From NCBI GenBank assembly GCA_963693055.1, contig OY843751.1:3330359-3394358 (forward strand): DNA of 64,000 nucleotides, in the 5' to 3' direction. Position 1 is the first letter of the stretch; each line of letters starts with the position of its first letter. The position numbers were made by a program, and so were the translations under genes. This stretch comes from a bacterium. GTDB lineage: Bacteria > Zhuqueibacterota > Zhuqueibacteria > Residuimicrobiales > Krinioviventaceae. Below the pieces are notes generated by a model. That model made no database searches. It saw only the letters and a program-made list of their open reading frames with translations, and was not told the DNA's origin. Positions 2,705 through 46,349 of the stretch are shown here, one piece after another.

Positions 2705-4102
2705 ATGTTGAAAAACACAATTTTAATTGGATTGTGTATTTCCGTATGTGTATTCATGTTTTCTTGTACAACTCAAGAGGATACAGCTATGAAATTTACA
2801 GGCGCCAAGGGTGAAGTTACTATAATGACTTTGGATCCGGGTCACTTTCATGCCGCATTGGTCCAAAAAACCATGATTGACCAGATCTCACCGGACGTTT
2901 ATATATATGCACCAGATGGTCCGGATGTTGAAGACCATATCAAACGTATGGAAGGTTTTAACAATCGTGCAGAGAATCCCACCAGTTGGAATCTACATGT
3001 ATATAAAGGTGATGATTTTCTGGATAAAATGATTGCCGAAAAACCCGGTAATGTTATGATGACCGCCGGTAATAACAAGAAAAAAACCGAATATATCAAA
3101 GCAACTGTTGATGCAGGAATCAATGTACTGGCTGATAAACCCATGTGTATTGATAAAAAAGGTTTCGAGTTGTTAAAAGAAGCTTTTGCTTCTGCTGAAG
3201 CTAATAATGTTCTGCTTTATGATGTGATGACAGAACGTCATGAAATTACAACCATATTGCAGCGCGAACTTTCTCTGATTCCCGAAGTATTTGGTGAATT
3301 GGAAAAAGGAACCCCTGACAATCCTGCAGTTACAAAAGAAAGTGTTCACCACTTTTTCAAATATGTTTCCGGCAATCCCATTAAACGTCCGGTTTGGTAT
3401 TTTGATACTACCCAACAAGGCGAAGGTATTGTTGATGTAAACACTCACCTGGTAGATTTGATTCAATGGGAATGTTTCCCCGAACAGATCATCAACTATG
3501 AGACTGATATTGAGATGCTGCAGGCAAACCGCTGGCCAACCATGATCAGCAAAGCCCAGTTTGAAAAAGTTACCCGTGAACCTGAATTTCCTGATTTTCT
3601 GAAAAAGAATATCAATAAAAAAGGCGAACTGGAAGTTTATGGTAATGGTGACATGATTTACAAAATCAATGGCATTCACGCCAAAGTATCTGTTATCTGG
3701 AACTATCAGGCACCTGAAGGCGCTGGTGACACTCATTACTCTATTATGCGTGGAACCAAAGCCAATGTAATCATCAAACAAGGTGTAGATGAAAAATACA
3801 AACCTGAATTGTATGTAGAACATCCGCAAGGCAAAAGCACCAAAGAACTGGATGATGCAATAATGGCTGCTATTCACAATCTTCAGGATAAATATCCTGG
3901 TATTGATCTTGAAAAACAGAAAAAACGCTGGCACATTATTATTCCTGACAAGTACCGTGTAGGCCACGAAGCACACTTTGGTCAGGTAACCCAGAAATAT
4001 CTGCAATACCTGGTTGACGGTAAACTCCCCGATTGGGAAGTTCCAAACATGATCTCCAAGTACTATACTACTACTACTGCTTTAGAGATGGCGTCAAAAT
4101 AA
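2705..4102 (+). CDS. Lipoprotein with a Gfo/Idh/MocA-like oxidoreductase fold (putative oxidoreductase C-terminal domain family)
   Basis: Signal peptide plus lipobox (FMFSCTT). There is a Rossmann-like N-terminal region without a canonical GxGxxG, and the full 465-aa ORF is preceded by an AAAGGAGCG RBS. The product assignment is tentative. Confidence 0.45.
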   Translation: MLKNTILIGLCISVCVFMFSCTTQEDTAMKFTGAKGEVTIMTLDPGHFHAALVQKTMIDQISPDVYIYAPDGPDVEDHIKRMEGFNNRAENPTSWNLHVYKGDDFLDKMIAEKPGNVMMTAGNNKKKTEYIKATVDAGINVLADKPMCIDKKGFELLKEAFASAEANNVLLYDVMTERHEITTILQRELSLIPEVFGELEKGTPDNPAVTKESVHHFFKYVSGNPIKRPVWYFDTTQQGEGIVDVNTHLVDLIQWECFPEQIINYETDIEMLQANRWPTMISKAQFEKVTREPEFPDFLKKNINKKGELEVYGNGDMIYKINGIHAKVSVIWNYQAPEGAGDTHYSIMRGTKANVIIKQGVDEKYKPELYVEHPQGKSTKELDDAIMAAIHNLQDKYPGIDLEKQKKRWHIIIPDKYRVGHEAHFGQVTQKYLQYLVDGKLPDWEVPNMISKYYTTTTALEMASK

Positions 4103-4128: not shown

Positions 4129-4163
4129 AGCCCCTTACATTTATTTGTATGGGGCTTTTTTTT
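4129..4163 (+). terminator. Rho-independent terminator after the 2705-4102 gene
   Basis: Hairpin AGCCCC...GGGGCT (6-bp GC-rich stem, 16-nt loop) is followed by T8. Confidence 0.6.
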
Positions 4164-4261
4164 AACCTTGATTTAACCAGAATTACAAGATTAACATGAT
4201 TTCCTTGATTAACCACCAAAAGGCATTTTTGAGTCCTGATCAATAGTTTACGGATTGGGAT

Positions 4262-4320
4262 GAATTGGAGGGTCGATAATAGTCTGAATTATGATTATCA
4301 GGATTGTTATAATTATAGGA
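4262..4320. repeat. Copy of the dispersed intergenic repeat family (core GTCTGAATTA...GATTATCAGGATTG)
   Basis: The sequence GGGTCGATAATAGTCTGAATTATGATTATCAGGATTGTTATAATTATAGGA matches the units at 6.3-6.7 kb. Confidence 0.5.
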
Positions 4321-4552: not shown

Positions 4553-6202
4553 ATGAAGCGATTGTTTTTATTCTTGTTCATCTTGTTAGAAATTAACGCA
4601 GCAGCAGCCTCTGACAGTATAGAGTTGGCTAAACAAAACGGCAAACAAGCGCAGGAAGCATTAATCCATAGCAATCGGGTTCTTGATGCATATATGAAAC
4701 GTCTCGATCCTGTAACCGGCCTTCTACCCCGCAAAGGTGGAAACAAAACCTGGTATGTACGTGATTCCGCAGCCGACCTCTATCCTTTTCTGGTGATGGC
4801 AGCTTATTATACGGATCGTGAAATTTATGATCACCAGATGTTTGAAATCCTTCGTAATGAAATCAAACATTCCACACGCGTGGGGATGCTTTCCGATAAT
4901 GTGCTGGCAGGCGGAGGCTTTGAACATGACGAAATTGACATGGATCGCATCATTTTCGGGTCCTGCGAATATGTCAAAGACGGTCTCATTCCCCTTACCG
5001 AACTTTTAGGACACCATGCATGGTATGAGCGAATGACAGGTATTGTTGATGATATGATTGTCAACGCAACCTATGAAACTCCTTATGGTATGCTGCCGTC
5101 CATGAGTGATGAAGTCAATGGAGAATTTTTGCAAGCCCTCTCCCGCCTCGCATATCTTACCCATGATTCTCGCTATATCAATCAGGCCATTTCAATTGGA
5201 GATTTTTATTTCAATGTGGTCATTCCCGGGTCTCACGGATTACCTACTCATATGTGGGATTTGAAAAATAACAAACCGGAAACAAACTTTTTTAATTTTG
5301 CCGATCACGGAAATGAGATCGTTGGCGGTTTATCAGAACTAGTATTATTTTTAAAAGAAACCGGACACCCTAAATTCGATGAATACCAACAACCCATGAT
5401 CAATCTTATTGACCAACTGCTTGAAAGCGGCCTGAATTCTGATGGCGTATGGTATTCCAAGATCAATCCCGAAACCAATGAGATCATTGACGAACGCCAC
5501 GCACACTGCTGGGGGTATTTGTTTAATGCGGTTTATACAACATATTTGATTTCCGGAGAAAAGCGCTTTCTGGATGCTACCGAACGTGCATTACAGGCTG
5601 TAACGGATAAGCCTGCCTACCTTGACGATCCTGATGGAAGCGGACGCAATTACGGTTCCAACGCTTATTCCGATGCAATTGAAAGCGCAATCGTTTTTCT
5701 GAATCGTATGCCGGACGAACATAAATTTACAGTGTTGGATGAATGTGTGGACCGGTTCCTGAAACGCCAGCGGGATGATGGTATTATTGAAGACTGGTAT
5801 GGAGATGGTAACTATGTCCGCACCGCACTCATGTACGTTTTTATGAAATCACAAGGCACATGGATTGAGCCGTGGAATAAAGATGTTAGCCTGGGCGCAG
5901 TTGAACAGGATAACAGTATACTGATAACATTAGTAAGCGAAGAAGACTGGCAGGGTATTCTCCGTTTTGACAAGCCGAGACACAAATTGAACTTCAATCT
6001 TTCAGTCAATTATACACGTTTGAATGAATTCCCGGAATGGTATACTGTAGAACAGGACAAACTCTATTCACTTGACATCAATGGCAAACAAGAGGTATAT
6101 ACCGGAGGAGAGCTTGTACGCGGTATACCTGTAGAATCAAATTCTGGTGAGAGCCTGGTGATTCATGTCTCTGCCTTGCCTGGGCCACCGTATGGACCTT
6201 GA
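4553..6202 (+). CDS. Secreted protein of unknown function; possibly a glycan-active (alpha/alpha)6-barrel-like enzyme, which is uncertain
   Basis: An AAGGAGG RBS precedes a cleavable signal peptide (MKRLFLFLFILLEINAAAA) and a 549-aa ORF. No catalytic motif is recognised with confidence. The gene is flanked on both sides by the intergenic repeat family. Confidence 0.7.
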   Translation: MKRLFLFLFILLEINAAAASDSIELAKQNGKQAQEALIHSNRVLDAYMKRLDPVTGLLPRKGGNKTWYVRDSAADLYPFLVMAAYYTDREIYDHQMFEILRNEIKHSTRVGMLSDNVLAGGGFEHDEIDMDRIIFGSCEYVKDGLIPLTELLGHHAWYERMTGIVDDMIVNATYETPYGMLPSMSDEVNGEFLQALSRLAYLTHDSRYINQAISIGDFYFNVVIPGSHGLPTHMWDLKNNKPETNFFNFADHGNEIVGGLSELVLFLKETGHPKFDEYQQPMINLIDQLLESGLNSDGVWYSKINPETNEIIDERHAHCWGYLFNAVYTTYLISGEKRFLDATERALQAVTDKPAYLDDPDGSGRNYGSNAYSDAIESAIVFLNRMPDEHKFTVLDECVDRFLKRQRDDGIIEDWYGDGNYVRTALMYVFMKSQGTWIEPWNKDVSLGAVEQDNSILITLVSEEDWQGILRFDKPRHKLNFNLSVNYTRLNEFPEWYTVEQDKLYSLDINGKQEVYTGGELVRGIPVESNSGESLVIHVSALPGPPYGP

Positions 6203-6274
6203 TAAACCATCATTAAAGGAATAAACCCAGATTATAGGATTATCAGGATTGACTGATTAGAACAATTCCGGGCC

Positions 6275-6491
6275 CTGAGTGCGAGTGAGTGTCATGCTCA
6301 CGAGTGTATCGAAGGGCCAGTAATTGTCTGAATTAAGACCCTGATTAAAGGATTATCCTGTCTGACTTGATTAGAGCCGGGCTCTGAGTGCGAGTGAGTG
6401 TCATGCTCACGAGAGTATCGAAGGGCCAGTAATTGTCTGAATTAAGACCCTGATTAAAGGATTATCCTGTCTGACTTGATTAGAGCCGGGC
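6275..6491. repeat. Two tandem copies of a ~109-bp unit, with 1 mismatch between copies
   Basis: Unit 1 runs about 6275-6382 and unit 2 about 6384-6491; the units differ by GAGTGTATCG versus GAGAGTATCG. Each unit contains the hairpin GTGAG-TGTCATG-CTCAC and the family core GGGCCAGTAATTGTCTGAATTAAGACCCTGATTAAAGGATTATC. Confidence 0.85.
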
Positions 6492-6610
6492 CTGGTAAGC
6501 TGATCGCCCGGCACTTGAGTGCCGGGCGGAATATCACATTGGGACATGTGTCCCTACATACATAATTCAGGACAGAAGTCCTGACTAAAATTCCGCCGGG
6601 CACAAATGTA

Positions 6611-6700
6611 CCCGGCAATCAAAGGGCTGGTAATTGTCTAAATTATGACCATGATTAAAGAATTTAACAATGATTAAAGGATTATCAGGATTGCCATGAT
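6611..6700. repeat. Degenerate copy of the same repeat family
   Basis: AAGGGCTGGTAATTGTCTAAATTATGACCATGATTAAAG...ATGATTAAAGGATTATCAGGATTGCCATGATTAAA. A further partial copy lies at about 6770-6795 and a remnant at about 8925-8975. Confidence 0.6.
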
Positions 6701-6845
6701 TAAATCCGGGCGCTGTACTTTGACATGCTCAGCAACCGTGCTGCCTTCGCCTAAAGCAGATGGATTTATCAAAGGGCTGGTAATTGTCTTTTTACGTTAC
6801 CAAACAGGAGTTTGGTAACGAGTAAAAAAAACGGCAAACATGAGA

Positions 6846-6871
6846 CGCTCAAAAAGCTGATAGCTATCAGC
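6846..6871 (-). terminator. Terminator of the ABC-F gene
   Basis: The perfect 16-bp palindrome GCTGATAGCTATCAGC at 6856-6871 is followed on the minus strand by TTTTTGAG. It sits about 12 nt after the stop at 6883. Confidence 0.6.
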
Positions 6872-6882
6872 TATTAAAAACC

Positions 6883-8844
6883 CTATTCCTCATTCAACGT
6901 TGCTAGCAATTCTTCAATTTCCATCTGAGCGGTCTCCCACTGTTCCATGTTTTGCTGAAGATTGTTTTTCGCGTCTGCATATTCTTTTTGCAGCTGAGCA
7001 GCTTTGGGACCATCTTTGTAGGTTTCAGGATCAGCAAGTAATGTCTCTATTTCACCAATTCGTGTTTCAAGTATCTCAATCTGAGCTTCACAATCATCCA
7101 CTATTTTTTGGAATTGGTTCCGTTTTTTACTGATTGCCTGCCGCGCTTCCGCTTCTTTGCGTTTATCTTCTTTGGATTTCTTGACTATACTGGTTTTAGA
7201 TGTTGATTCAGTAGGACTAGAAGATTTGGAATCAGTGATTTTGGTTTCATCCTGCTGGCGTCTATGCAAATAATCAGAGTAATTGCCCTCATATACCCGC
7301 AAATGTTTTTCCTTGATCTCAATAACGCGAGTCACGAGTTTATCCAGGAAATAGCGATCATGTGAGATGAGAATAACTGTACCATCATAATATTTTAACG
7401 CATGTTCAAGCGCTTCTTTCGATGCCATGTCCAGATGGTTGGTAGGTTCATCCATAATCAAAAAGTTGACAGGCGACATTAATATCTTGGCAAGAGAAAC
7501 CCGTGCTTTTTCTCCACCCGACAATACCCCAACCTTTTTGAACACATCATCACCCGTGAACTGAAAAACGCCCAATACATCTCTAACCTGTGGTAACAGA
7601 CTGTCAGCAACAGAAGAACAAACCTCATCATAGACCGTTGCATTTAAATCCAACGTATCCACCTGATGCTGGGCATAGTAACCAATATCGGTCTTTTGGC
7701 CAACAGTAATTTCACCTTGCTGTTGTTCAAGCTGCCCTACTACCAGACGAGTGAGGGTTGTTTTACCGGCACCATTAACGCCTACCAATGCCAGTTTTTC
7801 ACCACGGTACAGATCCATATCCACATTTTCAAGGACCCAGTCCTTTTCGTATTTGAATGACATGTTTTTTACATGCAGTACTTCTTTATAACTTTGCTGA
7901 TGTACGGAAAGTTTAAAATTCAAGCGTCTTGGCGGTGGCGGCAGTACAACATCTTCAAGCTTATTTAGCTGTTTCACACGACTTTGTACCTGTTTGGCTT
8001 TACTGGCTTTGTAGCGAAAGCGATCAATAAACTCTTCCTGCTGTTGTCGTTTAGCTTTGACTTCTTCCTGTCGTTTCATCAACAGTTCAAGATTTTCTTC
8101 TTTTCTACGCTCATAATCGTGGTAATTACCGGGATAATGGGTCAGTTTGCCTCTGTCCAGTTCATAAATTTCATTACACAAACGTTCAATAAAATAACGG
8201 TCATGCGACACAATAACCATACTACCGCTGAAACTGAGCAAGTATTGTTCAAGCCATTCGAGTGAAGGTAAATCCAGATGGTTGGTAGGTTCATCGAGAA
8301 GCAGCAGATCCGGTTTCTGGATGAGCAAACGCGCCAAATAAACACGCATACGCCAACCACCACTAAAATCAGAGATAGGACGGTGAAAATCAGATACAGC
8401 GAATCCCAAGCCGGACAAAATCGCTTTAATACTGCTTTCCAGTTTGTATCCGTCAAGCACTTCATAACGGCTTTCCAGAGTGCCCAACTTTTTCAGCAGG
8501 GCATCGTGATCGCCTTCTCCATCTTCAAGCTGATGACGGATCTTGTAAATCTGTTCTTCCAGATCCAATAATTCTCCCTGACCTTCTAACGCAACCTCTA
8601 GAATACTGCCACGCTCAATACTGATCTCTTCCTGAGGAAGAAATCCTATAACATAATCTTTGGGTTTTATCTGCTCCATAGAATCAGGTTGCAGGTCACC
8701 ATTTACCACGCGTAACAAGGTGGTTTTCCCCGCACCGTTGGGGCCAATTAACGCGGAACGTCTACCAGGAGTTATGGTCCAGTTTACATCGTTAAATAAA
8801 TATCTTTCACCAATAGCATAATTTAATCGAGATATTTGCAGCAT
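6883..8844 (-). CDS. ABC-F family ATPase (tandem ABC domains, no transmembrane domain, C-terminal coiled-coil); translation/ribosome-associated, Uup/YheS/EttA-like
   Basis: There are two Walker A motifs (GPNGAGKTT, GVNGAGKTT), two ABC signatures (LSGGWRMRV, LSGGEKARV) and two Walker B motifs (LLLDEPTNHLD, LIMDEPTNHLD). A charged linker separates the domains and the C-terminal tail is rich in K and E. Confidence 0.93.
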   Translation of the reverse strand: MLQISRLNYAIGERYLFNDVNWTITPGRRSALIGPNGAGKTTLLRVVNGDLQPDSMEQIKPKDYVIGFLPQEEISIERGSILEVALEGQGELLDLEEQIYKIRHQLEDGEGDHDALLKKLGTLESRYEVLDGYKLESSIKAILSGLGFAVSDFHRPISDFSGGWRMRVYLARLLIQKPDLLLLDEPTNHLDLPSLEWLEQYLLSFSGSMVIVSHDRYFIERLCNEIYELDRGKLTHYPGNYHDYERRKEENLELLMKRQEEVKAKRQQQEEFIDRFRYKASKAKQVQSRVKQLNKLEDVVLPPPPRRLNFKLSVHQQSYKEVLHVKNMSFKYEKDWVLENVDMDLYRGEKLALVGVNGAGKTTLTRLVVGQLEQQQGEITVGQKTDIGYYAQHQVDTLDLNATVYDEVCSSVADSLLPQVRDVLGVFQFTGDDVFKKVGVLSGGEKARVSLAKILMSPVNFLIMDEPTNHLDMASKEALEHALKYYDGTVILISHDRYFLDKLVTRVIEIKEKHLRVYEGNYSDYLHRRQQDETKITDSKSSSPTESTSKTSIVKKSKEDKRKEAEARQAISKKRNQFQKIVDDCEAQIEILETRIGEIETLLADPETYKDGPKAAQLQKEYADAKNNLQQNMEQWETAQMEIEELLATLNEE

Positions 8845-9074
8845 AGTCCATTCAAAGTTTGTTCATACAAAGAAATGAATTTACTAAAGAATAGACAAAA
8901 ATCCCAATGGAAAAATAACCAAGATTAATACCATGATTAAAAAAGATTCACATGATTTACCATGATTGAAGGATCATATAGTTTTGAGCAAGAAATATTA
9001 TTATGCATTTTTATTTCTTTGCGTACACTGTGATATCTTGGCGACCTTTGCGATCTGTATTTTTTAAGCATTAA

Positions 9075-10490
9075 TTAATACTCGCTGAAATACAATCCCA
9101 CTTCCGAGATTAACGGACACGCGCGCGCATCATTAATGGTCAAACGGACATATCTGGATTTAACTGCATCAATCCGATCCAGCTTTTTATTACCAATGGT
9201 TGTGCCCTTACTCACCTCGATCCATTCATTACCGGACTTTACTTCCACAGTATATGCCTTTATCCGTTGCCCCATCATAATGGGTTCGCGAATTTCGACA
9301 ACATTAAAAGTCTTATCTTCTCCCAAATCCAATTCAAGAGATGCAGAAAGAGTATTATTGTCTGTGGTCCAATAAGTATTATTATCCTTGTCCACTACAT
9401 TCGCTGCCTTGAACTGTTCCGCGTTCCCCCTCACCTCACTTGCAGTTACAGTTGCACCATCAACAAGATTATCATCAAAAATGGAATCCAGTGCTTTTCT
9501 AAACTCATATAGCCGTTTAACATCAGCTTCTTCAAACAGTCCCCTGTCATTGGGTGGTATATTCAGCAACAGTACGCAATTCCGGCCAACGGATTTGAAA
9601 TAGATATCCAGCAAATGTTCAAGCGATTTGGGCTGCTGCTCCTTATGCCAGAACCAGCCTTTGCGTATAGATACATCACACTCGCCTGCCACCCAATCGG
9701 GTCCTTCAATATCACCACTATTTAAATATTTAGTATCGGCTTTACCGATTTTAACTCGGGATTTGTCGATCATGGACCAGCATGTTTCACCGGCAAAACC
9801 ATGTTCATTGCCAATCCAACGGACATCCGGGCCGGAATCGGAAAACATGCACACACCCGGCTGCATTTGGCGAACCAGCGACCAGAACATATCATAATCA
9901 TAGACCTGTACTTTACCATTGGGACCTTCTCCGCAAGCACCGTCAAACCACATCTCGGTCAAGGGACCATAATTTGTCATCAATTCCCGCAGTTGTCCGG
10001 TATAATACTGATTATACGCTTCTCCCTGTCCATAAGTCGCTTCGTGGCGGTCCCAGGGTGAGAGATAGATCCCCATGCTGATTCCAAATTTTTCACAGGC
10101 ATTAGAAAGCTCTCTAACTATATCTCCCTTGCCATCTTTCCAGGGACTGGTTTTCACGCTGTGATCGGTGTATGCGCTGGGCCAGAGGCAGAATCCATCG
10201 TGATGTTTGGCTGTAAGGATGACAGTTTTAAATCCGCATTCCTGAGCGGTTTTGGCCCACTGTTCTGCATCCAGATCGACAGGATTAAAGATTGCAGGTT
10301 CTTCGGTACCGTCTCCCCATTCCTTGTCTGTAAATGTATTGACAGTAAAATGCACAAACATGATCAATTCCTGTTGCTGCCAGGAGAGCTGTCTTGCCGT
10401 GGGTATGGGCAGGATGGGTGTGGGTGGTGTGGTTTGCGCGAACAGGTTAACAGACATAAAAAACAGGATAAATAATTTTAGAATTTTCAT
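9075..10490 (-). CDS. Alpha-L-fucosidase (GH29) with a C-terminal F5/8 type C (discoidin) domain; secreted
   Basis: The GH29 motif TAKHHDGFCLWPS is present, and the C-terminal region is discoidin-like. The start is chosen at the M of MKILKLFILFFMSVNLFAQ (signal peptide), which has a GGAG RBS. The ORF-track start at 10517 is 9 codons upstream. Confidence 0.88.
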   Translation of the reverse strand: MKILKLFILFFMSVNLFAQTTPPTPILPIPTARQLSWQQQELIMFVHFTVNTFTDKEWGDGTEEPAIFNPVDLDAEQWAKTAQECGFKTVILTAKHHDGFCLWPSAYTDHSVKTSPWKDGKGDIVRELSNACEKFGISMGIYLSPWDRHEATYGQGEAYNQYYTGQLRELMTNYGPLTEMWFDGACGEGPNGKVQVYDYDMFWSLVRQMQPGVCMFSDSGPDVRWIGNEHGFAGETCWSMIDKSRVKIGKADTKYLNSGDIEGPDWVAGECDVSIRKGWFWHKEQQPKSLEHLLDIYFKSVGRNCVLLLNIPPNDRGLFEEADVKRLYEFRKALDSIFDDNLVDGATVTASEVRGNAEQFKAANVVDKDNNTYWTTDNNTLSASLELDLGEDKTFNVVEIREPIMMGQRIKAYTVEVKSGNEWIEVSKGTTIGNKKLDRIDAVKSRYVRLTINDARACPLISEVGLYFSEY

Positions 10491-10841
10491 GATAACTCCG
10501 GGAATGGGTCTAACCACAAAGCCGCAAAGGACATAAAGATTTTAAATATACAAATAATCCATAAAAAAGAAAATGAATTGATGGATAATTCCCAATATTT
10601 CAACCATATCAAGAAATTAAAAATATCAGAAAGAAATGATCCGTGAGGAACCGTGTAAATCTGTGGCTTGAATTATTTGGCCATGGATTGACACTAATCC
10701 ACGCAGAATCTCTTCGCGTACTTAATCTTTGTTGTTCCCCCTAAATACAGATAAACCACGAAGGACACGAAACTCACGAAGAAAAACATTGTTTTTTATA
10801 CAATATGTTTTATTTTTAGTTAAACACAATAAGGGGAAATC

Positions 10842-11684
10842 ATGAGCGAAGAAAAAACCTGTTTCATCATAATGCCAATAACTACACCCGAATCACACTT
10901 GGAAGAATACAGAGATGGAAAAACACATTTCAAGCATGTATTAGATTGCCTATTGATACCCAGTGTAAAAAAAGCTGGATTTAAACCAATCCCACCAATT
11001 GCAAAAGGTTCTGATATAATTCAAGCAGAGATTATTAAAAATCTTGAAATATGTGAGCTGGTCTTGTGTGACATGTCAACATTGAATCCAAATGTTTTTT
11101 TTGAATTTGGTATAAGAACTGCTTTAAACAAGCCAGTCTGTGTTGTAAAAGACGAAATCACCCAAAAAGTGCCATTTGATACAACAAATATCAACTATCA
11201 TGAATATAATAGCTCAATAGATCCTTGGGAATTAACTTCTGAAATTGATGCATTATCAACACATATTATAGATTCCTATAAGAGGAGTAATAATAAAAAT
11301 ACTTTGTGGAAATATTTTGGATTAAAAGATAAAGCTATTCCATACCAAACTGAACCAGGTGAAAATTCTGATATTGAATATATTAAAATGCAAATCAATT
11401 CTATAAATCAAAAAATGGGAGGCTTTACTTACACTGAAAATGAAATAGGTCCATTAACTAAAGCTATAGTTAACTTAAACGATTCAAACAAACAGATTTC
11501 TAAGTCCAAAATATATAGAATAATTGAAGAATTCAAACCAACCACAGCTGAAATTGAAAATATTAAAATTCAAGATGGAAACATGATAAATATACATTAT
11601 ACAGGAAAGTGGTCAAGTGTTGATAAAATTCTCTTAATAGATTTCTTTAAGAAAGTACACTATAATGTACAATATGAAATGTAA
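10842..11684 (+). CDS. Standalone protein with an N-terminal NDT/TIR-like (nucleoside 2-deoxyribosyltransferase-like Rossmannoid) domain and an uncharacterised N/K/I-rich C-terminal half
   Basis: CFIIMPITTPE...DIIQAEIIKNLEICELVLCDMSTLNPNVFFEFGIRTALNKPVCVV matches the NDT pattern (AGPFF-like strand, then DSGTAFELGYAxALGKPV with a catalytic Glu in FFEFG). GC is about 33% against about 42% in the flanks. An AAGGGGAAATC RBS precedes it. Confidence 0.55.
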   Translation: MSEEKTCFIIMPITTPESHLEEYRDGKTHFKHVLDCLLIPSVKKAGFKPIPPIAKGSDIIQAEIIKNLEICELVLCDMSTLNPNVFFEFGIRTALNKPVCVVKDEITQKVPFDTTNINYHEYNSSIDPWELTSEIDALSTHIIDSYKRSNNKNTLWKYFGLKDKAIPYQTEPGENSDIEYIKMQINSINQKMGGFTYTENEIGPLTKAIVNLNDSNKQISKSKIYRIIEEFKPTTAEIENIKIQDGNMINIHYTGKWSSVDKILLIDFFKKVHYNVQYEM

Positions 11685-11782
11685 ATAATTTATATTAAAT
11701 AACACCTTTTAAAAATATATCACAAATCCTATTAAAGTAATCCACTACCTGCTTTGCGATCTTTGCGGCTTTGCGGTTATCT

Positions 11783-11816
11783 AAAAAAAAGCCCGTCCCA
11801 AAATCAGAACGGGCCC
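11783..11816 (-). terminator. Terminator of the minus-strand NIPSNAP/PTE/Ldh_2 operon
   Basis: Read on the minus strand, the hairpin GCCCGT...ACGGGC at about 11791-11814 is followed by T8. Confidence 0.6.
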
Positions 11817-11827
11817 AGGTATATTCA

Positions 11828-12619
11828 CTATATCTGCGAGCACCCAAGCGGACGCAGGATAATATCTGTGATATTGGATACGGTGTCTTTGTACTTTTCC
11901 ACCTCACGCAGCTGTAACCAATCCGGATGGGTACGGAACTTGTCCCAACTGGCAAAACGCTCATCCATGTCGTTAAACGCCAGCATATAGGTCAAATTCG
12001 GCATCATGGGGCCTACAATAGTCTGCCCAAACAAAACAGGATTCAAATCGGAATCTTTGAAAATATCAATCTCGCTGCCATTGTTAAACATTTCAACTTT
12101 GAGATTACCGGCCTTAACACTGTGACTCTCGTAAATACGTATTTCATAAATGCGGCTCTTGTTTTTCAACATTTCTGTTGGCACCTCTACCTTGGGCATG
12201 TGCGCAAAACATTGCAGTAAAGAGGATTCCCTGCGAACATACGCTATATTATCCAGCGTTGTGTTGAGGAAATCTGCGCCGGCTTTATTATATTCCGCAT
12301 CATCCAGTAATTTTTGAGGTACTGTTAATACAGATTCTATATTGGGGTGCGGGATCATAATATACAAAGTGGGGTCAGTAGGACCAAAAAAGACATTGAA
12401 CGCACCCACGTTTTTAATGCCTGCACGATTCAATGCGGGTATAGCCGCATCACGATAAAATTCTTCAACGCGGTTCTTGCCAGAACCCACATTCAACCGA
12501 TATTTAATCAATTCAACAATTTCCTGTTTTCCTGTAGCAGCATTTGCATCACTTTGCATGCCTGCCATGGTGGCGGCGCCGGCTGCAACAGAAGCTGATA
12601 AAAAATCTCTACGCTTCAT
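11828..12619 (-). CDS. TAT-secreted NIPSNAP-family protein (tandem NIPSNAP-like domains)
   Basis: The twin-arginine signal reads MKRRDFLSASVAAGAATMAG. The second half matches the NIPSNAP pattern (YEIRIYESHSVKAGN...NPVLFGQ). An AAGGAAGGA RBS precedes it. Confidence 0.6.
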   Translation of the reverse strand: MKRRDFLSASVAAGAATMAGMQSDANAATGKQEIVELIKYRLNVGSGKNRVEEFYRDAAIPALNRAGIKNVGAFNVFFGPTDPTLYIMIPHPNIESVLTVPQKLLDDAEYNKAGADFLNTTLDNIAYVRRESSLLQCFAHMPKVEVPTEMLKNKSRIYEIRIYESHSVKAGNLKVEMFNNGSEIDIFKDSDLNPVLFGQTIVGPMMPNLTYMLAFNDMDERFASWDKFRTHPDWLQLREVEKYKDTVSNITDIILRPLGCSQI

Positions 12620-24690: not shown

Positions 24691-24724
24691 AAAAAAGGAC
24701 GGCCAATTAGCCGTCCTTTTTTTT
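24691..24724. terminator. Bidirectional rho-independent terminator between htpG (+) and nrdA (-)
   Basis: A6-GGACGGC-CAATTA-GCCGTCC-T8: a perfect 7-bp GC-rich stem flanked by an A-tract and a T-tract. Confidence 0.75.
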
Positions 24725-34821: not shown

Positions 34822-34860
34822 AAAAAAAAGGCGTCCTCCACAAACAAGACGCCTTTTTCT
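34822..34860. terminator. Bidirectional terminator between the NapH-like gene (+) and the chemoreceptor gene (-)
   Basis: A8-AGGCGTC-(12-nt loop)-GACGCCT-T5: a GC-rich 7-bp stem flanked by A- and T-runs. Confidence 0.7.
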
Positions 34861-34879
34861 CGGAGGAATTGGGTATTTT

Positions 34880-46056: not shown

Positions 46057-46119
46057 CCCCTTTATCCCCTTTATCCCCTTTATCCCCTTTATCCCCTTTA
46101 TCCCCTTTATCCCCTTTAT
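46057..46119. repeat. Perfect microsatellite (CCCCTTTAT)x7
   Basis: Seven uninterrupted 9-bp units lie in the AT-rich spacer about 185 bp upstream of the dGTPase ATG. On the island coding strand this reads (ATAAAGGGG)7, that is G4 tracts spaced by 5 nt. Confidence 0.95.
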
Positions 46120-46349
46120 AATTTGAATAATTAATAGATTTCAGACAAAATATGCAAGAAATAATTGGTTTATTATCCATTTTCAAAAAATAATTTTATA
46201 AAGAAAATTTTCAAATTAATATTTACTAAATATATCAGTGTGAGAATTGTTTAAAAATTACCAACCCGATAAACGATGAGTAAAATGTCCTTGCAACAAT
46301 ATGCAATTTATTGCCCGGCACTTGATAAGTTACCGGGCAAGTATCACTA

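Follow-up and report, generated by a model that had tools for sequence, protein, structure and literature searches.

In a 64-kb stretch of the bacterial contig OY843751.1 (64,000 nt, the whole of which is called the window below), a 549-aa open reading frame (ORF) on the + strand and an ABC-F ATPase gene on the - strand run towards each other, and their facing stop codons are separated by a 680-bp block (6203-6882) of nested imperfect palindromes and GATTA-rich spacers. We suggest that this block is a lineage-specific, locus-bound palindrome mosaic that would act as a hairpin cluster at the 3' ends of both convergent transcripts, in the manner of bacterial interspersed mosaic elements (BIMEs) and BOX elements. 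This reading is tentative, and we would give it slightly less than an even chance. The block itself is a real, non-random and lineage-specific feature of a familiar kind, with no sign of a new class of system.

No intergenic gap in the window is larger than this block of 680 nt; the other convergent gene pairs stand 60-250 nt apart and mostly share a single compact, canonical bidirectional terminator. The folding energy of the block lies far outside that of dinucleotide shuffles, with z-scores of -8.25 (+ strand) and -7.1 (- strand). A preliminary description of this DNA had reported that the block holds no ORF of 60 aa or more, and this was confirmed, the longest ORF in 6203-6882 being 54 aa. 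The same description had listed five perfect hairpins, all of which (H1 to H4 and the core of hairpin h, Table 1) were found again at the same positions by reading of the sequence and by a scan for perfect hairpins.

Anatomy of the block

The modules of the block are listed in Table 1. Beyond a first GATTA-rich spacer, S0, the sequence enters E1, the inner hairpin of which is GTGAG-TGTCATG-CTCAC (6285-6301) and the inverted ends of which are 15 nt long and match at 12 of 15 positions. The 3' arm of the E palindrome belongs to a 22-nt "tail", which in E1 reads ATCGAAGGGCCAGTAATTGTCT (6308-6329). This tail, ATCRAAGGGCYRGTAATTGTCT, is present in four copies in direct orientation, starting at 6308, 6417, 6618 and 6768. 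An E unit and the spacer that follows it together make up the 109-bp unit of a tandem duplication, so that the spacers S1 and S2 sit inside the tandem units. The duplication had been noticed in the preliminary description and was recovered by Tandem Repeats Finder with a period of 109, 2.1 copies and 97% matches. The two copies, U1 and U2, are ~98% identical; they differ at two positions over the full unit and at one in the frame chosen earlier.

Each unit contains a 38-nt core that had been called a "family core". Two exact copies of this core are indeed present, together with a third, 85% identical copy at 6618-6664 and partial copies at 6206-6251 and 6768-6789. The word "family" implies a dispersed repeat, and this part of the claim did not stand, since within the 64-kb window the core is confined to the locus, apart from one degenerate copy at 4267-4305. 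The hexamer CCGGGC recurs every 109-110 nt, but significant mutual similarity was found only among U1, U2, U4 and part of U0. The spacing of CCGGGC (6268, 6377, 6486, 6596 and 6706) had suggested six units in a regular 110-bp array, which was rejected, as U3 and U5 have no significant in-register similarity to the others.

The most elaborate module is the 121-nt imperfect palindrome e, which carries four of the perfect hairpins. Its arms (6501-6532 and 6590-6621) are 32 nt long, 78% complementary and separated by a 57-nt spacer, and H1 can be aligned with the reverse complement of H4 over 51 nt without gaps. Of the hairpins of e, H2 is GGGACA-TG-TGTCCC, H3 is CAGGAC-AGAA-GTCCTG and H4 is GCCGGG-N10-CCCGGC. 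The palindrome can fold as local hairpins or as one long hairpin, the latter being the minimum-energy structure in the relative described below, and the segment made up of e and its tail (6501-6639) folds with a z-score of -7. The decayed unit E4, on the other hand, folds no better than shuffles (z = 0.01). The last perfect hairpin, the core of h, has a T-run on its 5' side and an A-run on its 3' side and thus lacks the geometry of a terminator on either strand, as had been pointed out before. The terminator of the ABC-F gene that the preliminary description placed at the end of the block is indeed there, a hairpin followed by U5 on the - strand.

Table 1. Features of the block and its surroundings (positions in the window)
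Feature	Position	Strand	Description
S0	6203-6261	+	GATTA-rich spacer with GGATTR motifs at a 9-nt period; directly 3' of the stop codon of the 549-aa gene
E1	6262-6327	+	66-nt imperfect palindrome; head ACAATTCCGGGCCCT pairs with AGGGCCAGTAATTGT
Tandem duplication	6268-6492	+	109-bp unit (E unit plus 47-nt GATTA-rich spacer); copies 6268-6376 and 6377-6485, and start of a third
e	6501-6621		121-nt imperfect palindrome; two copies of one half in inverted orientation, with H1 and H2 in the left and H3 and H4 in the right one
H1	6505-6528		Hairpin of e
H2	6541-6554		Hairpin of e
H3	6568-6583		Hairpin of e
H4	6595-6616		Hairpin of e
Tail after e	6618-6639	+	ATCAAAGGGCTGGTAATTGTCT
S3	6640-6705	+	GATTA-rich spacer; degenerate copy of the tandem-unit spacer (U4 versus U1/U2, z = 7)
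E4	6706-6789	+	Decayed E unit; CCGGGC head, eroded interior, intact tail (6768-6789)
h	6785-6831		Long hairpin; core CGTTACCAAAC-AGGA-GTTTGGTAACG (6795-6820), lengthened by pairing of T-run and A-run
ABC-F terminator	6851-6875	-	Canonical intrinsic terminator; hairpin 6855-6872, then UUUUU
Tail-plus-spacer junction	4267-4305	+	Degenerate; upstream of the 549-aa gene; two adjacent short matches (nhmmer E = 1e-3)
549-aa ORF	4553-6202	+	No Pfam domain
ABC-F ATPase gene	6883-8844	-	Convergent with the 549-aa ORF

The same modules are rearranged in a relative

The locus was compared with that of a relative, a metagenome-assembled genome (MAG) of the KSB1 phylum (L001), in which the locus is syntenic and the flanking proteins are 91-94% identical. 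Homologue searches with both flanking proteins placed only two genomes in this clade; the next best matches, several of which were labelled KSB1, reached 70% and 68% identity. The intergenic region of L001 is 428 nt long and contains these modules too, but in another arrangement and copy number, with one E unit instead of two, h directly after that E unit, and then e with its tail. The position of the ABC-F terminator is taken by an AT-rich palindrome, and the terminator of the window is missing. Like the block of the window, that of L001 folds far better than shuffles (z = -7.7).

Over all alignment columns, the two blocks are 43% identical, the lowest value of six intergenic regions (54-95% in the others). 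Orthologous parts could be recognised nevertheless: S0 corresponds to 11651-11705 of L001 (~80% identity plus indels), e corresponds to 11844-11966, and E4 together with h is the positional orthologue of the single E unit of L001 (6756-6824 versus 11732-11800, 91% identical). The tandem duplication is absent from L001. As its two copies are ~98% identical while neutral sites have diverged by ~33% between the genomes, the duplication is, judged from this divergence, recent and specific to the lineage of the window. Small ORFs of 40-54 aa in the block were considered as genes and rejected, because with the modules rearranged such reading frames cannot persist in the relative.

Stems are conserved and prefer the strand of the gene they face

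To set the conservation of the hairpins against a neutral reference, we used the four-fold degenerate sites of the two flanking genes and of a fucosidase gene, which are 66-69% identical between the window and L001. The stems of e are identical at 54 of 56 positions (96%), compared with 44 of 62 (71%, not different from neutral) in its loops and linkers (Fisher p = 1.7e-4). Conservation of secondary structure at a homologous locus, which the preliminary description had proposed to look for, was observed for this module. Both changes in the stems of e are from C to U and keep a G-U pair; no two-sided compensatory change was found inside e between the two genomes. The tail that follows e is identical at all 22 positions, as is the core of h at all 26. 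In the outer stem of the E unit there is one two-sided compensatory change, ACAATT/AATTGT to ACGATT/AATCGT, which replaces an A-T by a G-C pair, and the inner hairpin of E has been exchanged wholesale in L001 for another perfect hairpin at the same place (TCCGCC-GCA-GGCGGA). The best-supported description of these patterns is that a subset of the hairpins of the block appears to be under constraint.

Predicted folding energies differ between the strands. The E units and H1, which lie towards the + strand gene, favour + strand RNA: E1 folds with -26.7 kcal/mol on the + strand versus -19.9 kcal/mol on the - strand, E2 with -21.0 versus -10.6 kcal/mol, the E unit of L001 with -33.5 versus -28.8 kcal/mol and H1 of L001 with -17.9 versus -9.3 kcal/mol. 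H4, the hairpin of e on the ABC-F side, favours - strand RNA in both genomes (-14.1 kcal/mol on the + strand versus -19.2 kcal/mol on the - strand in the window, -11.1 versus -19.3 kcal/mol in L001). The sample behind this asymmetry is small, with four informative substitutions. Such an asymmetry would follow if every hairpin did its work in the transcript from the gene that it faces, and the opposite preferences fit poorly with a single small RNA (sRNA) or with recognition as duplex DNA.

The modules appear confined to one locus

The tail was the module scanned genome-wide. A 22-mer with four two-fold degenerate positions was searched for in 185,579 species, each represented by a single genome, and was found at the orthologous locus of one KSB1-phylum MAG, the relative (CAXXMD010000002.1, two copies). 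One other match lay in an archaeal MAG, and as it was located in high-G+C DNA without any other module, it was read as chance. In Joint Genome Institute (JGI) metagenomes and in viral contigs, the tail matched only one stretch of phage sequence without other modules, which was likewise read as chance. An exact-pattern scan of genome contigs for a 27-nt core gave 0 matches, scans of viral contigs for h and H4 gave 0 matches, and a distant-mode search of a plasmid database gave no match. BLAST and profile searches of the 64-kb window returned no further significant module copy except the degenerate tail-plus-spacer junction upstream of the 549-aa gene (Table 1). The modules are also absent from three more distant loci that we compared, which are not syntenic. 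Since the tail is known only from the locus of the window and the orthologous locus of the relative, the block does not appear to be a dispersed repeat, as far as this can be tested.

One hairpin elsewhere in the window resembles H1. This GC-rich hairpin (46311-46340) follows the stop codon of a 721-aa ORF on the - strand at a distance of ~10 nt and has 15 of 16 bases in common with H1; both carry ATYGCCCGGCACTTGA followed by TATCAC. The similarity is not significant (E = 0.3-0.5). Judged by eye, this hairpin pairs better on the - strand by virtue of a U-G pair, like H4.

The GATTA-rich spacers have a distribution of their own. Short tandem motifs of the form NCCNTGATTAA, with a period of 9-12 nt, were observed at 4160-4215, 6203-6705 and 8918-8967 in the window and at 9683-9721 and 14114-14165 in L001, where, for example, ACCATGATTAAT is repeated three times. 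All of these clusters have the + orientation, and they are kept in the relative. They are restricted to three adjacent intergenic regions that surround the 549-aa and ABC-F genes, and none was found elsewhere in the 64 kb or in the more distant KSB1 loci. From their sequence, these motifs could be binding sites for a protein or products of slippage.

Comparison with known repeats and RNA families

The identities proposed in the preliminary description included a structured non-coding RNA, a cluster like repetitive extragenic palindromes (REPs) or BIMEs, and an array of miniature inverted-repeat transposable elements (MITEs). A known structured RNA was not found: 0 Rfam families reached their gathering score in the whole window, and no match in the block had an E-value <0.01. 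The best sub-threshold match was MicF with 22.3 bits (gathering score 79), and the lowest E-value, 0.018, belonged to Acido-Lenti-1 with 21.6 bits (gathering score 37). At permissive thresholds, the matches in the blocks of the window and L001 were at chance level and not consistent between the two. A hammerhead-like reading of CUGAGUG...GAA in the E unit was rejected by eye, as U stands where G8 is required, and Rfam was silent here too. Inspection of the sequence also led us to drop oriC or DnaA boxes, a dif site, iterons, GGA motifs of a CsrA sponge and a CRISPR (clustered regularly interspaced short palindromic repeats) array, because the consensus did not agree, the spacing was irregular, the motifs at the other GATTA clusters lay on the wrong strand or partner genes were lacking.

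The resemblance to REPs and BIMEs is partial. REPs are 20-40 bp long and are tagged with GTAG or CGTC; a genome has >100 copies of them, in association with genes for REP-associated tyrosine transposases (RAYTs) (PMC2817692, PMC3733652); roles in transcription termination and mRNA stabilisation have been hypothesised for them (PMC3733652). Like the BIME and REP clusters of enterobacteria and pseudomonads, the block consists of GC-rich imperfect palindromes in partly alternating orientation with short linkers, and it shares their extragenic position, often at 3' ends. The proposal of a REP/BIME-like cluster holds in so far as there are nested imperfect palindromes and inverted paired units in a modular arrangement between convergent genes. 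It fails on dispersed copies, wherever these could be counted, and on the tags: GTAG is absent from the blocks of both genomes, and CGTC is absent from that of the window and occurs twice in that of L001, neither time tag-like at the end of a palindrome. The palindromes of the block also differ from those of BIMEs in being heterogeneous, the one module scanned genome-wide is confined to the locus, and no RAYT was seen among the window proteins scanned.

The palindrome e has the architecture of a REP doublet forming a hairpin (REPIN), with two inverted units around a spacer and one long hairpin possible; REPINs fold as local hairpins or as one long hairpin (PMC3116915, PMC3337134). REPINs, in contrast, form large within-genome populations mobilised by RAYTs, while e was found as a single copy in each genome sampled (the 64-kb window and L001), at the orthologous place in both. 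The idea of a MITE array was borne out as to the nested palindromes and the terminal inverted repeats (the ends of E1 and the 32-nt ends of e), but not as to dispersed copies, and no clean target-site duplication was seen: GGGCCTGGTAA and GGGCTGGTAA flank e in the window but not in L001, and with e present in both genomes neither offers an empty site. No transposase domain was detected in the 14 window proteins scanned. As copy number (where testable) and tags do not fit and no clean target-site duplication was seen, we do not file the block under REP/BIME, REPIN or MITE; by analogy, it probably works like elements of these types.

BOX elements of Streptococcus (boxA-boxB(n)-boxC) offer another comparison. 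As in the block, an internal module varies in tandem copy number, here two units versus one in L001, and the predicted RNA is strongly folded. The sequences are not similar, and BOX elements are dispersed in about a hundred copies per genome, whereas the mosaic is a single-locus feature in the sequence available. The block also recalls bidirectional intrinsic terminators in that its hairpins lie between two 3' ends, with H1 and H4 each facing one gene. The bidirectional terminators of the window, however, consist of one hairpin each, preceded by an A-run and followed by a T-run, in gaps of 60-143 nt, while the hairpins of the block have no U-tracts and h has the reversed arrangement.

A putative role at both 3' ends

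On the reading that we favour, the nested palindromes and GATTA-rich spacers would have grown by local duplication and by recombination among the modules themselves, above all through the 22-nt tail, with the two near-identical 109-bp units as the latest duplication event. The conserved hairpins (the E unit, the four of e, and h) would most likely act in RNA. As the 549-aa gene has no canonical terminator, its transcript would run on into the E units and H1, and E1 would be the first structure encountered after the stop codon; a read-through transcript of the ABC-F gene would meet H4. Stable hairpins would stop or slow the polymerase and block 3'-to-5' exonucleases, with the result that both 3' ends would be defined and stabilised and the convergent transcripts held apart. 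For a block that is presumably transcribed, a role as barrier or stabiliser is suggested by analogy with known elements. Small structured repeats, BOX elements among them, are over-represented where genes converge; the large modular BOX elements extend the 3' end of the upstream operon by 600-650 bp, are co-transcribed with it and form structures thought to hinder 3'-to-5' exonucleases; and transcription is attenuated by some BIMEs (PMC3049150).

Several observations weigh against this reading. A U-tract behind the hairpin is present only at the ABC-F terminator. The E units, H1, H2, H3 and h lack one, and H4 has on the - strand a weak tail, AAUUUUAG, in the window that is not found in L001. 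Textbook bidirectional intrinsic terminators, composed of an A-run, a GC hairpin and a T-run, are present between other convergent pairs, at 24691-24722, 34826-34870 and 11697-11720, which indicates that the organism normally uses canonical terminators. Since the hairpins of the block lack a U-tract in a genome that is otherwise canonical, termination at them is only putative. As the order of the modules is not the same in the two genomes and E4 is decayed, a large part of the block may be neutral, the tandem duplicate and the spacers among it. The clade is represented in the databases by two genomes, with one truly compensatory pair between them, and the structure was derived from the same sequences that were then compared. 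Finally, template-switch repair can hold palindromes symmetric without selection, by quasi-palindrome mutagenesis.

If the RNA-level reading is true, the locus is a compact natural example of a palindromic repeat mosaic that arose where it stands, through duplication and recombination and not by way of transposition, and convergent genes of KSB1, a little-studied phylum, could set their 3' ends by strand-tuned hairpins without U-tracts. The 109-bp unit is in addition a likely variable-number marker for strains of the lineage, and hairpin-rich tandem blocks are typical trouble spots for assembly and annotation.

Alternative explanations

The mosaic could instead be a graveyard of small non-autonomous mobile palindromes of REPIN or MITE type that were inserted into one another in a 3' region tolerant of insertions, with neutral tandem duplication and without a function for the host, which we consider plausible but somewhat unlikely. 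The two inverted palindromic units of e with their alignable halves are REPIN-like, E1 has its inverted ends, the sequences flanking e in the window could be a target duplication, and the module order differs in the relative; the hairpin at 46311-46340 that resembles H1 could be read as a further copy, and repeats of this sort are enriched between convergent genes (PMC3049150). Yet in the whole MAG of the relative the tail occurs at the orthologous locus only, no further significant module copy was found in 64 kb (the match at 46311 has E = 0.33-0.5), GTAG and CGTC tags are missing, the relative has no flanking duplication around e, and neither a transposase nor a RAYT is among the 14 window proteins scanned, which are not all of the window proteins. 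Moreover, stems that are kept while the adjoining bases drift at the neutral rate would not be expected of dead elements. A platform at the level of DNA, where a regulator or nucleoid protein would sit on the phased GATTA motifs and palindromes, or cruciforms would be extruded, seems to us very unlikely. BIMEs, which bind integration host factor (IHF) and gyrase, are the model for such a function, and it would accord with the restriction of the GATTA clusters to three intergenic regions near both genes, in one orientation and kept in the relative, and with palindromes symmetric enough to fold on both strands. On the other hand, the spacers differ between the genomes by slippage-like indels, four unrelated palindromes would require several proteins, and the strand asymmetry of the G-U type points to RNA and not to duplex DNA. 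We know of no protein that binds the GATTA motif.

Two proposals concern the segment 6501-6639, with its four hairpins and invariant 22-nt tail, as an RNA in its own right. In the broader one, which we hold to be unlikely, it would be a new structured RNA element of the KSB1 lineage, either an sRNA of ~140 nt or a face-to-face pair of 3'-end hairpins without U-tracts, and the repeated tail would be the recognition site of a processing or binding factor. The narrower one, a free-standing sRNA gene of a new family with the E units as partial siblings, we regard as decidedly unlikely. Its length of ~140 nt, its site between convergent genes, its fold (z = -7) and a pattern like that of structured RNAs, with stems at 96%, loops and linkers at 71% and the single-stranded tail at 100% identity, would all suit such a gene. 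No promoter or terminator is kept in both genomes, however, promoter-like sites being at the level of shuffles and not present in L001; there is no relative in Rfam and the segment is known from two genomes only; no change on both sides of a stem within the element is compensatory; and an inverted duplication whose outer hairpins prefer opposite strands is unlike a single transcript. The preliminary description had also raised attC-like recombination sites. That the block is an integron-type attC array without cassettes is hardly conceivable, even though tandem imperfect palindromes of 60-120 nt lie in one orientation and the sequence after the conserved 22-nt tail varies from copy to copy: no RYYYAAC/GTTRRRY pair of R''/R' core sites is present on either strand of the window or L001, cassette ORFs are missing, and the neighbours that were checked, which are housekeeping genes, include no integrase.

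Neighbouring genes and other observations

The 549-aa protein has >1000 homologues in MAGs labelled KSB1, Hydrogenedentes, Omnitrophica, Gemmatimonadota and Acidobacteria, and in two more distant loci (L008 and L010) a homologue stands among carbohydrate-active enzyme genes. From this sequence context, the protein may belong to an uncharacterised family of carbohydrate-active enzymes.

The Oxidoreduct_C gene (2705-4102) is 98.7% identical in amino acids to its orthologue in L001 and 82% identical at four-fold sites, compared with 66-69% at the four-fold sites of its neighbours. This similarity suggests a recent exchange between lineages or an unusually strong codon constraint.

The region is otherwise collinear between the two genomes, apart from a small variable gene slot at 10790-11785. 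The ORF in this slot (10842-11684, + strand) and the gene at 15990-16871 of L001 (- strand) are unrelated, encode ~280-290 aa on opposite strands and have no Pfam domain. Farther along the window, a 477-nt AT-rich intergenic region contains seven perfect tandem copies of the 9-mer CCCCTTTAT at 46057-46119.

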